Position numbers: made by a program. Below are positions 18,312 to 27,300 of a DNA stretch of 64,000 bases, one piece after another. Position 1 is the first letter of the stretch. The number at the start of each line of letters is the position of its first letter. The stretch lies in assembly GCF_054482595.1 (NCBI RefSeq), contig NZ_CM137008.1; one strand, 5' to 3'.

Positions 18312-21300
18312 TAATTGTGTGGACTGGCATCCGTTGGGTGCTGGTCCGTATTCTTTAGCACGGCTGAAGGCGCATAACCAAATTTATGTTTAAAGGCTTT
18401 GCTGAAATGAAAGGAGTCGAAGAAGTTGAGCGTATCAGCGACTTCGCCAACCGAGTTTCCTTGTTGCTTTAATAGCGATAGCGCCAGATCCAGACGCGCA
18501 TCGAGGTAATATTCTTTCGGCGTCTTGCCGGTATAGCGTAAAAACAGACGACGCAACCAGGCTTCGCTACAGGGGATCGTGGCAGCCATATCGGCTACGC
18601 TCCAGCGTTGTTGCAGACTGGCATGTAAAGTGGCAATTAATTTTTCAATTTGCCGCCGTTGTGGATCTTTTTTACCGTCTGCGTACATAAGACAAATCCA
18701 CTGATAAATAATTTTCGTCAGAAAAGCGACTGCCAGATTATTTTTTATTGCTTCTGGTGAAGTTATTAACTCAGCAACTTCGGTGAGTTCCTGATTATAA
18801 ATTTCGCCATTATAAATAACGCTTTGCTGACCAACGGGAATATCCATCATACTGGTGGGGGTAAATTCCATCCAGTACTGTTCCCAGACTAAACCTTCAC
18901 AGTGATAAGAGTGAATATCCATTGGCTTTAAAAATATAATACAGTTGCCATGCAGAGTTATTTGTTCGCCATTCTTTAAAAGAATTTTCCCACATCCTTG
19001 TACGGTATACACCGCAACCCATGAGTTGGCGATAAGCGGTTTCTTCTTGTCCCGCGGCCAGATCACCCGGTAATGCTCGTCGGCGTAGGTATGCCAGAGC
19101 GAGATCAGAGAAATTCCGCTGGAGATCACATTTTCGTTAATCAATAAGGGAATATTGTACGGAGTTTCGTTTTTTACATCTGAACTTTGCAATTTTCCAT
19201 TCATTTTAATATCCCTCCGGCGAATTATGCTCACAACCTGAACTTAACAGAAAACAATCCGTTCAGGGATACGACGTTTGTATTTTAAGAATCTGACTGC
19301 CTGACCCGACGCATTTTACCTCTCCCTATATTCATGCGTCCGGGACATAAACATAAATAAGGGCTATGAGATGAATTCGTTACAAATCTTGAGTTTTGTC
19401 GGTTTTACGCTGCTGGTGGCGATCATCACCTGGTGGAAGGTTCGCAAAACAGATACCGGATCGCAACAAGGCTATTTTCTTGCCGGACGTTCACTAAAAG
19501 CGCCGGTTATTGCCGCTTCGTTAATGTTAACCAACCTTTCCACGGAACAACTGGTTGGTCTTTCCGGGCAGGCCTACAAAAGCGGCATGTCGGTGATGGG
19601 CTGGGAAGTGACTTCAGCGGTGACGCTGATCTTCCTCGCGCTAATCTTTTTACCGCGCTATCTGAAGCGCGGCATTGCCACCATCCCCGATTTTCTGGAG
19701 GAACGTTATGATAAAACGACGCGTATTATCATCGACTTCTGCTTCCTCATTGCCACCGGCGTCTGCTTTCTGCCGATTGTTCTCTACTCCGGCGCGTTGG
19801 CGCTCAACAGCCTGTTTCACGTCGGGGAATCGCTACAGATTTCTCACGGTGCGGCTATCTGGCTACTGGTAATTTTGCTTGGTCTGGCGGGAATTTTGTA
19901 TGCGGTGATCGGCGGACTGCGCGCAATGGCAGTGGCGGACTCCATCAACGGTATTGGGCTGGTTATCGGCGGGTTGATGGTGCCGGTATTTGGCCTGATC
20001 GCGATGGGCAAGGGCAGCTTTATGCAGGGCATTGAGCAAATTACCACCGTTCACGCCGAGAAATTAAACTCAGTCGGTGGCCCGACCGATCCCTTGCCGA
20101 TTGGCGCGGCATTTACCGGTTTAATTCTGGTGAACACCTTTTACTGGTGTACAAATCAGGGCATCGTGCAACGCACGCTGGCGTCAAAAAGCCTGGCGGA
20201 AGGGCAAAAGGGGGCGCTGTTAACGGCGGTGCTGAAAATGCTCGACCCGCTGGTACTGGTGCTGCCAGGGTTGATTGCGTTTCATCTGTATCAGGATCTA
20301 CCGAAAGCCGACATGGCCTACCCGACGCTGGTCAATAACGTTCTGCCAGTGCCACTGGTGGGTTTCTTCGGCGCGGTGTTATTTGGTGCGGTGATCAGTA
20401 CCTTCAACGGCTTTCTGAATAGCGCCAGTACGTTATTCAGTATGGGTATTTACCGTCGCATCATTAACCAGAATGCCGAGCCGCAGCAGCTGGTCACCGT
20501 CGGGCGCAAATTTGGTTTCTTTATCGCTATCGTTTCGGTGCTGGTCGCGCCGTGGATCGCCAACGCGCCGCAGGGGCTGTATAGCTGGATGAAACAGCTC
20601 AACGGCATTTACAACGTGCCGCTGGTTACCATCATCATTATGGGCTTTTTCTTCCCGCGCATCCCGGCGCTGGCGGCAAAAGTGGCGATGGGGATTGGCA
20701 TAATCAGATACATCACCATCAACTATCTGGTGAAGTTCGACTTCCATTTCCTCTATGTGCTGGCCTGTACGTTCTGCATCAACGTGGTCGTGATGCTGGT
20801 GATCGGTTTTATCAAACCGCGCGCCACGCCGTTCACCTTCAAAGATGCGTTTGCGGTGGACATGAAACCGTGGAAAAACGTCAAGATCGCGTCAATTGGC
20901 ATCCTGTTCGCGATGATTGGCGTCTATGCCGGGCTGGCTGAATTCGGCGGCTACGGTACGCGCTGGTTAGCGATGATCAGTTATTTCATTGCCGCCGTAG
21001 TGATTGTCTACCTGATTTTTGATAGCTGGCGGCATCGTCACGACCCAGCCGTAACCTTTACTCCCGATGCAAAGGATAGCCTATGAAACGCCCCAATTTT
21101 CTGTTCATCATGACCGATACCCAGGCCACCAATATGGTCGGTTGCTATAGCGGTAAGCCGCTGAATACGCAACATATTGATAGTCTGGCGGCGGAAGGTA
21201 TTCGCTTTAATTCCGCCTACACCTGTTCACCGGTTTGTACACCGGCGCGCGCCGGGCTGTTTACCGGTATCTACGCTAACCAGTCCGGGCCGTGGACCAA

Positions 21301-24300: not shown

Positions 24301-27300
24301 CGCATATGCGGGTGATGCGTGATCTGATAAAGCAGCATCGTTCTCCCATGGAGCTGATGACGATGCTGCGGTGATGTGCGCTTAAACGGGCTGCCCCTGA
24401 TGCGACATCCGCGTCGCCAGCGGTAGCCAGCACAGCACGATCAACAATCCCATTAAGGTCATCAACAACCCCAGGCTGCCCTGACCGGTTTGCGGCAACA
24501 TCGCTGATAGCGACGCCAGCACGCCGGAACCAATGTTTTGCAGACCACCGACCAGCGCGCCAGCCGTGCCCGCCAGGAAGGGGAACGGCTCCATCGCGCC
24601 GCTGGTCGCCAGCGGAAACAGCATCCCGGCACCGAAAAAGAACAGCGCGGCGGGAACAAGCAGCGTCCAGACATTCATCACGCCAAACCAGTCGGGGATC
24701 CACATCAGCAAGCCAGCCAGCAGGCAGCAGATAACCGACTGCCACATCAACGTTGAGAAGCGTTTATTGGGACGTCCGGCAAACCATGCCCCAAAAAATG
24801 CCGCCGGAATCGGCAGAATAAACAAAATACTGACCGTCATACTGCTCAGCCCTAACACCGCGCCCATCAGCACGCCGGAGCAGGCTTCAAAGGCGGCAAT
24901 CCCGGCCAGACCGCCAATCAGCATCAGCAAATAACAGTTAAAACCGCCGTTACCGAAAAGCGTTTTATAACTGGTAAGCAGGCGCGTGCGCGGTGCATCG
25001 ACCGGACGCGTTTCCGGCATCCAGCGGGCCATACTGAAGGTCACGCCAGCACAAAGAACCAACAAAAAGAGATAACAGGCGCGCCAGTTCCACATCGTAT
25101 CCAGCAGACCGCCGATTAGCGGTGCGAGCAACGGACTAACAAGAATCCCCATGTTTAACAGGCTGTTAGCATGGCGCAACTGTGTCCGTTCATATAAATC
25201 ACGCGGCAAAGTACGCGCCATTACGCCGCCAACGCCGGTGCCCATCCCCTGCATCGCGCTGGCGGCAATCAATACCGTCAAACTGGAGGTCGTGACCGCG
25301 ACCAGCGTTGCCAGCATAAAAATGGACATTCCGACGAGGATCACTGGTCGGCGACCCACGCGGTCGGATATCGGGCCATAAAACAGCTGCGAGACACCGT
25401 AAGTCAGCAGATAAGCGCCCATTACGCTCTGCACCGCCCCTTCACGGACGTTGAGATCGCGCGCCATATCGGCAATAGCTGGAATATAAATGGTTTGCGC
25501 CATCTGACCGACGGCCACGAGTAATACCAACATCAATAACAAATTGACGTTTCTATGCCTTTTCATTATCACGGATGCTTTTATAAAAATAATTAGAATA
25601 AGTCACTACGCATTCCCATAAATGCGGGAGAGGAATCTATCACATTGATGAATGTTAGCCAGATATGTGCCGGGAATGGCGAAAAGCAAAACGGCAGAAT
25701 ATGTAAACAAAAGCGGCAATAAATGTTGCCGGGAGGGATGGTAGGTCGGAGAAGATGCGTCAGCATCGCATCCGACACCAACTCACACGCTAAATATAAA
25801 AGGGGAGCGGTTACCCGCTCCCCTTTGGTGCGACTTGAATCTGAATTACTTCAGGTATTTCAGAACAGCATCAAGCAGTTGCAGTGCTGCAACAATGAGT
25901 TTGAGGATAAGAATGGCGATATCCACCAGGCTCATACGCGTCTCCTGTGGTTCAGGAGCACTGCCAGCTGACGTACCTTTCCGCTGCCTGTTGCCAGCTG
26001 TTGTGCACGCGGTATCTCAAGGAGAAACGTTGTGCTTGTTGACATAACACAGTGTGCTCACGCGGGGTTAAGGCGCTGACGGCACCACCCGTTTCAGCCA
26101 GGACTTAGTGCGCCGGGTAACGATGCGGCCCCCGCATAACACATTGCGTACAGTGATATTATAGAAGTTTACTGTATAAATAAACAGTAATATTTAGACA
26201 AAACGCAAACTGTGATCGATACTCAACTATGTACTAAATACGTCAAAATTCGTGCCGAAATTGCGCGTTCTGCGCGGAACAGGTATACTTTCAGTGTTGA
26301 CATAATACAGTGTGCTTTGCGGTTACCAGCCGCAGGCAGCTGACGAAACCTCGCTCCGGCGGGGTTTTTTGTTACCTGCAATTCAGTATAAAACGTGATC
26401 AACCCCTCAATTTTCCCTTGCTGAAAAATTTTCCATTGTCTCCCCTGTAAAGCTGTGCTTGTATAAATATTGTTAAACACAAAACCAACAAGGTCCCCAA
26501 TGACTACTTCCATGTTCAACGCAAAACTACTACCAACTGCGCCATCCGCCGCAGTGGTCGTCGTGCGTGTGGTGGTGGTCGTCGGCAATGCGCCGTAGGG
26601 ACTGGAACAACACACGATTCCAAAACCCCGCCGGCGCAAACCGGGCGGGGTTTTTCGTTTAAGCACCTCCCGGGAAGTCGGCCCAGAAGAAAAGGACTGG
26701 AGCATGGCAAGTTCGGGCACAACATCGACGCGTAAGCGCTTTACCGGCGCAGAATTTATCGTTCATTTCCTGGAACAGCAGGGCATTAAGATTGTGACGG
26801 GCATTCCGGGCGGTTCTATCCTGCCTGTTTACGATGCTTTAAGCCAAAGCACGCAAATCCGCCATATTCTGGCTCGCCATGAACAGGGCGCGGGGTTTAT
26901 CGCTCAGGGAATGGCGCGCACCGACGGTAAACCGGCGGTCTGTATGGCCTGTAGCGGACCGGGTGCGACTAACCTGGTGACCGCCATTGCCGATGCGCGG
27001 CTGGATTCCATCCCGCTGATTTGCATCACCGGTCAGGTTCCCGCCTCGATGATCGGCACCGACGCCTTCCAGGAAGTGGACACCTACGGCATCTCTATCC
27101 CCATCACCAAACACAACTATCTGGTCAGACATATCGAAGAACTCCCGCAGGTCATGAGCGATGCCTTCCGCATTGCGCAATCAGGCCGCCCTGGCCCGGT
27201 GTGGATAGACATTCCTAAGGATGTGCAAACGGCAGTTTTTGAGATTGAAGCACAGCCCGCGGTGGCAGAAAAAGCCGCCGCACCTGCCTTTAGCGAAGAA

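Follow-up and report, generated by a model that had tools for sequence, protein, structure and literature searches.

Sulfatases are inert until one of their residues has been converted to formylglycine. The closest described relatives of the protein considered here are the anaerobic sulfatase-maturating enzymes (anSMEs), including anSMEcpe of Clostridium perfringens (PDB 4K36-4K39), Klebsiella AtsB, and AslB and YdeM of Escherichia coli, which accept both Cys and Ser substrates. The formylglycine-generating enzyme (FGE), which is aerobic and copper-dependent, is unrelated to anSMEs in sequence and mechanism but likewise makes formylglycine, acting on the Cys of the C-x-P-x-R signature in Cys-type sulfatases such as YidJ, discussed below. 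To our knowledge, E. coli has no FGE at all. Here, we describe the yid gene cluster in a stretch of 64,000 nucleotides (hereafter, the window) of contig NZ_CM137008.1, assembly GCF_054482595.1, which starts at dnaA and is 100% identical to E. coli chromosomes, for example, that of strain SM107. The cluster encodes YidJ and a small homolog of anSMEs, YidF. In the reading that we favor, to which we assign a probability of about 60%, a maturase dedicated to this locus lost its core in frame, YidF was retained with a non-catalytic role, and YidJ is matured in trans. The basic point, that yidF is maturase-like and lacks the radical S-adenosylmethionine (SAM) part, leaving the sulfatase dependent on something else, is presumably already recognized for E. 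coli; the origin by internal deletion, the evidence for purifying selection and the apparently recurrent reduction are added here, and the evolutionary pattern is modestly interesting. The features that carry the argument are as follows.

21083-22576, plus strand: yidJ, 497 aa, cytoplasmic Cys-type S1 sulfatase (PF00884, E 8e-73, and SGSH_C)
21236-21250, plus strand: sulfatase signature C52-T-P-A-R, YidJ aa 52-56 (motif scan)
23877-24374, plus strand: yidF, 165 aa, remnant of a locus-specific anSME (partial TIGR03942 match; positional orthologues)
23877-23906, plus strand: retained ancestral N-terminus MTGSQVIDAE of YidF (alignment with full-length forms starting MTGCQVMAKPASSRCNLDCRYC)
24174-24185, plus strand: approximate junction of YidF deletion 2, with about 50-60 aa of the SPASM core missing (alignments)
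24198-24266, plus strand: YidF Cys motif C108-x2-C111-x5-C117-x12-C130, with the spacing of C317/C320/C326/C348 of anSMEcpe
24264-24371, plus strand: YidF C-terminal tail CAGYQAFYSYSAPHMRVMRDLIKQHRSPMELMTMLR, where conservation is highest (invariant alignment columns)

An anSME relative without its catalytic core

YidF shares descent and fold with anSMEs. The domain search suggested in an earlier note on this sequence returned no Pfam match (PF13186 included) and no TIGR04085 match, and the match to TIGR03942, the anSME equivalog, reached 75 bits (E 6e-21) in two partial stretches, against a curated equivalog cutoff of 349.45 bits. A regular-expression scan of the protein found no C-x3-C-x2-C anywhere, whereas the same scan located CxxxCxxC at residues 12-28 in AslB, YdeM, and the Citrobacter werkmanii orthologue; the earlier note had thus correctly described yidF as a 165-aa, anSME-like protein lacking this motif. 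Judged by its sequence, YidF cannot act as a canonical anSME: the absence of CxxxCxxC predicts a product unable to generate the 5'-deoxyadenosyl radical, and thus neither canonical anSME activity nor formylglycine formation by the anSME mechanism is to be expected. Compared with anSMEs, it also lacks the SAM-binding GGE region, most of the partial TIM barrel, the SPASM beta-hairpin, and the ligands of auxiliary cluster I, and it measures 165 rather than 370-411 aa. The RefSeq/PGAP label for YidF, carried by thousands of E. coli genomes, is "radical SAM protein" (annotation of H1-H32). This name is misleading and has no support in the sequence: YidF falls short of an anSME in three defining respects, having neither the radical-SAM motif nor an intact SPASM domain and scoring below the family cutoff, and is not to be filed as one.

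About 205 internal residues have been lost in total, through two deletions that are both in frame. The first, placed to within about 5 aa, follows residues 8-10 or so and removed about 145 aa of the radical-SAM core, including CxxxCxxC and GGEP. The second took away the equivalents of C255, C261, and C276 of anSMEcpe. Four more residues are gone inside the Cys motif, and no Cys occupies the position of C330 (C-x3-C). Of the seven or eight cysteines that bind auxiliary clusters I and II in a complete SPASM domain, YidF thus retains the four auxiliary-cluster-II positions only. What is left aligns with anSMEs in two segments: in phmmer comparisons with 4K36, YidF 29-95 matches anSMEcpe 177-246 and YidF 105-152 matches 314-370, and the middle segment kept in YidF spans aa 16-100, corresponding approximately to anSME 157-250. 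The Cys-rich C-terminal part noticed earlier is therefore real, aligning as it does to anSMEcpe 314-370, but it is not the only part preserved. Nor is the protein truncated at its N-terminus, as had been supposed: the ancestral start codon and first residues are in place, and the shortening lies within the protein.

The most distinctive retained element is the motif C-x2-C-x5-C...C followed by a C-terminal helix. According to PMC5715301, C317, C320, C326, and C348 of anSMEcpe bind auxiliary cluster II, and the cluster-I ligands include C255, C261, and C276. C108, C111, and C130 of YidF are invariant in 32/32 short and 31/31 full-length forms (the two kinds are described below), and 27 of the 32 short forms also have C117. 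Conservation across relatives peaks in the C-terminal tail, SAPHMRVMRDLIKQHRSPMELM.ML., the helices of which are predicted at a pLDDT (per-residue model confidence) of 86-95. The AlphaFold model of the entire protein, built on a 50-sequence alignment, has a pLDDT of 84.4 and a pTM (overall model confidence) of 0.82, and is less confident in the Cys loop only. When this model was submitted to Foldseek, the only significant PDB matches were the four anSMEcpe entries (E 5e-6 to 4e-5; query TM-score 0.61-0.64; probability 1.00). A zinc-ribbon identity was considered and rejected: the phmmer matches to ribosomal protein L40e are weak (E 0.04-0.19), and with one Cys in the first "knuckle" they are attributed to chance.

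Full-length orthologues and probable recurrent reduction

Relatives of YidF fall into two kinds, short forms of 165-186 aa and full-length forms of 370-374 aa. Short forms are encoded by every sampled Escherichia species, the Citrobacter freundii complex, Salmonella enterica subspecies arizonae and diarizonae, Superficieibacter, Klebsiella indica, K. pneumoniae ATCC 13883, Raoultella terrigena, Leclercia adecarboxylata, Silvania, and Kluyvera sichuanensis. Full-length forms occupy the same slot, directly after yidH-yidG, in Citrobacter werkmanii, C. braakii, C. sedlakii, most Kluyvera, Kosakonia, Trabulsiella, Atlantibacter, Pluralibacter, and Yokenella. The latter possess CxxxCxxC and a SPASM domain (TIGR04085 match) and score 473-484 bits against TIGR03942, above the cutoff. 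Such enzymes, for example, those of C. werkmanii (L028:8530-9642) and Atlantibacter subterranea (L068:8530-9654), are the positional orthologues of YidF: the flanking genes are the same, the start codon overlaps the yidG stop in the same ATGA arrangement as in E. coli, the N-terminus reads MTGC(Q/H)VMAKPASSRCNL.CRYC versus MTGSQVID in E. coli, and the tail, APHMRVMRDL.KQHRSPMELM.ML., is shared. They differ in retaining all three cluster sites, and the parts that they have in common with YidF are 35-61% identical. As far as alignments can tell, YidF is therefore a locus-specific anSME shortened by two in-frame internal deletions, with the ancestral start retained.

The reduction was probably not a single event. 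Deletion boundaries of the short forms differ between groups in the alignment, and their tails carry genus-specific features of the full-length form of the same genus: the short forms of Leclercia (L004 and L035) resemble the full-length form of that genus (L071), and that of Kluyvera sichuanensis (L029) resembles other Kluyvera. Intermediate states were also recovered. In Citrobacter amalonaticus ku-bf3 (L025), CxxxCxxC is kept and the rest of the core is lost; a Pluralibacter metagenome-assembled genome encodes a 249-aa form; and the protein database contains forms of 310-315 aa with mutated CxxxCxxC and GGEP and a shortened SPASM core. Trees interleave short and full-length forms, whether built from the flanking genes or from the shared region. 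Collectively, these observations point to a single architecture reached several times independently, probably four times or more, with reductions apparent in Leclercia, Kluyvera, Citrobacter amalonaticus, Pluralibacter, and Klebsiella/Raoultella. Alternatively, short yidF alleles may have been transferred between lineages rather than having arisen by independent deletions.

Loss of catalytic motifs with preservation of the fold and a ratio of nonsynonymous to synonymous substitution rates (dN/dS) well below 1 is what YidF shares with pseudoenzymes. Most described pseudoenzymes keep the whole domain and carry point substitutions, whereas the core of YidF was excised in frame, apparently more than once; YidF behaves like a pseudoenzyme whose core has been excised rather than mutated, with a putative non-catalytic role. 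Such recurrent in-frame excision provides a clear case of an enzyme shrinking to a small conserved non-catalytic protein, each reduction keeping the same four-cysteine module and C-terminal helix.

Selection on yidF and maturation of YidJ

When the window is compared with five other Escherichia lineages, the dN/dS of yidF is 0.11-0.23 (bootstrap upper bounds at most 0.39) and drops to 0.02-0.05 for residues 130-165. The short forms of other genera yield 0.09-0.34, and the full-length enzymes at the locus 0.06-0.21. About 30 intact short open reading frames (ORFs) were recovered across loci, and besides the cysteines, about 20 further alignment columns are invariant among relatives of 41-52% identity. 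In simulations of neutral substitution at the observed divergences, the yidF ORF remained open in 0.2-5% of runs, indels not being counted. The gene is present in 5420 of 5426 complete E. coli genomes. We conclude that yidF is kept by purifying selection as a folded protein and is not a dead gene. An element overlapping the 3' end was rejected as the cause of the constraint on the tail: the downstream gene varies between genera (emrD or a gene for a PALP-domain protein), and the tail is conserved as protein. The earlier note would have counted as refuted had YidF aligned over its full length to a functional family with no need of a radical-SAM domain; YidF aligns over its whole length with conserved proteins of 165-186 aa that are under purifying selection in several genera and whose function is putative.

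The residues around the Cys loop, aa 101-129 (24177-24263), are hypervariable between Escherichia species, with dN of about 0.26-0.32 and dS of at least 1.7 compared with a dS of 0.4-0.8 in the rest of the gene, recombination and alignment effects being unseparated in these values. The yidF allele of the window is itself a minority variant, shared at 99% identity or more by 26 of the 5420 genomes; nearly all the others, laboratory strains included, are 95-99% identical.

YidJ is a sulfatase. Its match to PF00884 spans the full profile (1-301), its best relative in the PDB is the S1_30A sulfatase 9ihk (E 3e-46), and 77 PDB sulfatase relatives are found at E of 1e-10 or below. The C-x-P-x-R signature reported earlier is indeed present as CTPAR at aa 52-56 and extends to C52-T-P-A-R-A-G-L-F-T-G, which fits (C/S)-x-(P/A)-x-R followed by x3-(L/F)-T-G; it is Cys52 that would have to be converted to formylglycine. 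The sulfatase domain starts at residue 2-4, and all 28 orthologues open with M-x-RPN(F/I)LFIMTDTQ, such that there is no signal peptide and the enzyme is expected to be cytoplasmic. CTPARAGLFTG is the same in 28/28 orthologues, every lineage with a short YidF included, and the dN/dS of yidJ within Escherichia is 0.045-0.058, as low as that of emrD and yidK. Because of this strong constraint (about 0.05) and the invariant signature, YidJ is probably functional, contrary to the suggestion that it may be inactive. As YidF has no catalytic core, maturation of a probably functional YidJ must then come in trans, and an enzyme encoded elsewhere is the most economical reading.

Within the window, tblastn with three full-length anSMEs matches yidF only, and the annotation contains no gene for a maturase or FGE. 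The earlier note had rightly considered a maturase encoded elsewhere: aslB is found in 5425 and ydeM in 5346 of the 5426 complete E. coli genomes (98-100%). Both products are full-length anSMEs above the TIGR03942 cutoff (AslB 518 bits, YdeM 505 bits) and are 43-46% identical to the full-length yid-locus enzyme of relatives. Of the three E. coli sulfatases AslA, YdeN, and YidJ, YidJ alone is of the Cys type. Furthermore, according to a passage of PMC8379841 that cites Benjdia et al. 2007, E. coli is suspected of harboring a third, still unidentified formylglycine (FGly) system besides AslB and YdeM, which is said there to act on heterologous sulfatases without either enzyme. E. coli is the standard expression host, and the question of which enzyme matures Cys-type sulfatases there has stood since 2007, when that third system was inferred. 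The yid locus offers a starting point, with the only endogenous Cys-type sulfatase of three and a dedicated maturase reduced to a relic, and the intact versions of the cassette in close relatives could be used for complementation.

Loci with enough flanking sequence were classified by the form following yidG and by the presence of yidJ, as follows.

Full-length form after yidG: yidJ present in 19, absent in 11
Short form after yidG (window included): yidJ present in 8, absent in 19

Full-length forms are more often accompanied by yidJ (19/30 versus 8/27; odds ratio 4.1, Fisher p 0.017, uncorrected for phylogeny). This fits a full-length enzyme that was dedicated to YidJ and could dispense with its own catalytic core after loss of the sulfatase. 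Exceptions are Escherichia, Salmonella arizonae, and Superficieibacter, in which an intact, constrained yidJ accompanies a short yidF.

In the favored reading, the original cassette encoded a cytoplasmic Cys-type sulfatase and its dedicated radical-SAM/SPASM maturase, along with an AraC regulator, a Na+/solute symporter, and two DUF202 membrane proteins. In the Escherichia lineage, the maturase gene would have undergone two in-frame losses, that of the radical-SAM core (cluster and SAM binding) and that of the SPASM portion responsible for binding auxiliary cluster I. The ancestral maturase start, translationally coupled to yidG, would have been retained together with the four cysteines in auxiliary-cluster-II spacing and the invariant C-terminal helix. 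YidF might bind one [4Fe-4S] cluster or another metal and serve in a non-catalytic or electron-carrier role, perhaps linked to YidH/YidG or to YidJ, that would be dispensable in some lineages. AslB and/or YdeM are the candidates for maturing YidJ anaerobically, and in air the candidate would be the formylglycine-forming activity on Cys-type signatures that has been reported for E. coli and is not yet assigned to a gene.

Several observations weigh against this reading. The cluster or metal binding proposed for YidF is read from cysteine spacing, the Cys loop is modeled at low confidence (pLDDT 59-70), and some Citrobacter short forms have another residue in place of the third Cys. An AlphaFold run on fused YidH-YidG-YidF, built on a paired alignment of 23 loci, gave no confident assembly (pLDDT 59, pTM 0.39). 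Enterobacter kobei and one Salmonella enterica genome have yidH-yidG and no trace of yidF, indicating that the remnant is not needed there for YidHG function; an obligate YidH-YidG-YidF complex as a universal rule is rejected on the same grounds. The cognate sulfatases of AslB and YdeM, AslA (SSPTR) and YdeN (SGPSR), are Ser-type periplasmic proteins with signal peptides, and activity of the two enzymes on the cytoplasmic, Cys-type YidJ is assumed from the published dual specificity of anSMEs. The lack of phylogenetic correction in the association of full-length forms with yidJ counts here as well. Finally, the literature searched contained no experiment on either YidF or YidJ, and the whole region is dispensable in the genome-reduced laboratory strain DGF-298.

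This dispensability would also be expected if yidF were a non-functional relic, a pseudogene in effect with an inert product, the reading frame of which happens to be uninterrupted owing to the shortness of the gene and its position at the operon end. The forms described above can be arranged in a decay series, from full length through long forms with mutated motifs (P0115, P0116, and P0124) and the 249-aa form to 165-186 aa and finally absence; the short forms evolve faster than their neighbors and sit on long branches; and the short frame is broken at two loci, in E. albertii NBRC 107761 (L018) and Leclercia adecarboxylata NCTC13032 (L060), where the interruption represents either inactivation or an assembly error, another E. 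albertii yidF (P0009) being intact. Nevertheless, we consider a relic unlikely, given a dN/dS far below 1 over the whole gene and in the tail, intact ORFs in at least 30 species against the small fraction left open in neutral simulations even before indels, three invariant cysteines with the fourth nearly so, a confident fold prediction, and near-universal presence in E. coli. A different proposal, that YidJ is inactive in E. coli, or independent of formylglycine, since its maturase is gone, with yidJ itself on the way out, draws on the catalytically dead dedicated maturase, on the complete loss of yidLKJ in 19 of 27 short-form lineages, on an apparent yidK-yidJ deletion in E. albertii (L018), and on the literature searched, in which no report of formylglycine in YidJ or of its sulfatase activity was found. 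This is quite improbable in view of the constraint on yidJ, as strong as that on emrD and yidK, the invariant signature in short-YidF lineages, coverage of at least 80% of the 7.3-kb locus in 5106 of 5426 genomes, and the presence of other maturases in E. coli.

The most far-reaching possibility is that YidF, possibly together with YidH and YidG, belongs to an FGly system that does not rely on radical SAM chemistry, namely, the third system of E. coli. A single-cluster YidF, co-translated with YidH and YidG, would then be a working component with YidJ as its natural client, acting as an electron-transfer module or as an adaptor presenting YidJ to another oxidant. YidJ is the sole Cys-type member of the three E. 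coli sulfatases, the reported system acts without AslB and YdeM, and YidF is conserved in the same gene cluster as YidJ. Moreover, yidF appears more tightly constrained where yidJ is present (dN/dS of 0.11 in Escherichia, 0.11 in Salmonella arizonae/diarizonae, and 0.19 in Superficieibacter) than in Leclercia and Silvania, which lack yidJ (0.32-0.34), a trend that stems from a handful of pairs. Short forms, however, persist in many genomes without yidJ, and the substrate-binding parts of anSMEs (barrel and SPASM hairpin) are deleted in YidF. We also know of no chemistry by which a single-cluster protein without a SAM site converts Cys to formylglycine, and we regard this possibility as very remote. 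YidH and YidG were also considered as maturase substrates and rejected, as inspection of their sequences by eye revealed no (C/S)-x-(P/A)-x-R motif in either.

Gene order and other features of the window

The ORF coordinates of the yid cluster were confirmed, and the RefSeq annotation of the identical locus in SM107 is concordant. The remaining genes of the cluster and its downstream neighbor are as follows.

18311-19204, minus strand: yidL, AraC-family regulator, divergent from yidK (Pfam HTH_AraC, HTH_18, and AraC_binding; annotation)
19371-21086, plus strand: yidK, sodium:solute symporter (PF00474, E 5e-50; NCBIfam PRK10484, 856 bits, above cutoff)
22623-23072, minus strand: yidI, 149-aa membrane-protein gene between yidJ and yidH (ORF and annotation)
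23181-23528, plus strand: yidH, DUF202 membrane protein (PF02656, E 3e-19, 69.8 bits; gathering score 23.4)
23518-23880, plus strand: yidG, second DUF202 membrane protein (PF02656, E 7e-12, 46 bits; gathering score 23.4)
Downstream of yidF, minus strand: emrD, convergent with yidF

The 7.3-kb yid stretch is matched in 5421 of the 5426 complete E. coli genomes. The yidK stop overlaps the yidJ start, and yidL is found together with yidK-yidJ in other genera. Described earlier as neighboring genes, yidF and yidJ are not adjacent: both lie in this cluster, with yidF 1.3 kb downstream of yidJ, and yidI (on the minus strand), yidH, and yidG intervene. No Pfam match was obtained for YidI. Its gene is found in Escherichia and a few Citrobacter loci, whereas yidH directly follows yidJ in most other genera; yidI looks like an insertion splitting the ancestral operon. 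The genes yidH and yidG overlap by 11 nt, and the TGA stop of yidG overlaps the ATG of yidF (ATGA). Synteny and translational coupling with yidH-yidG hold wherever yidF exists. Nearly all Enterobacteriaceae retain the yidH-yidG pair, whether or not the sulfatase or yidF is present (L002-L089). YidH is 79-99% identical across enterobacterial loci and 74% in Rahnella, its N-terminal GEAPDYRFSLANERTFLAWIRT is invariant, and the dN/dS within Escherichia is 0.01-0.04 for yidH and 0.05-0.12 for yidG (0 in the closest pair). The matches listed in a YidH search were all close enterobacterial relatives, with no distant DUF202 context among them.

The stop codons of yidF (plus strand) and emrD (minus strand) are 7 nt apart (24372-24384), so the terminator of either gene must sit within the coding sequence of the other. 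Promoter and terminator scans of 22500-24700 gave nothing above the shuffled expectation, and the simple scan found no convincing terminator. In the literature searched, yidF is mentioned only as one of the genes that an earlier RIL-seq study is reported to have listed as interacting with the small RNA GcvB; one further literature match for yidF proved to be a typographical error for ydiF.

Just upstream of yidL lie two uninterrupted coding sequences, for a phosphotransferase system (PTS) sugar transporter subunit IIB (15376-16992) and a 6-phospho-alpha-glucosidase (16992-18314). Two genes annotated as hypothetical proteins (28949-30250 and 30858-31961; region 28949-31961) are situated between ilvN and uhpA. 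On the minus strand, between yicN and nepI (41016-41676), a RelE/ParE-family toxin gene adjoins a helix-turn-helix (antitoxin-like) gene. An accessory block of virulence-type genes at 43296-61155 includes the 10.8-kb inverse autotransporter adhesin gene iatC, the HilA-family regulator gene eilA, and genes for type III secretion translocon, tip, and chaperone proteins (IpaD/SipD-, YopB/SseC-, and SycD-like).

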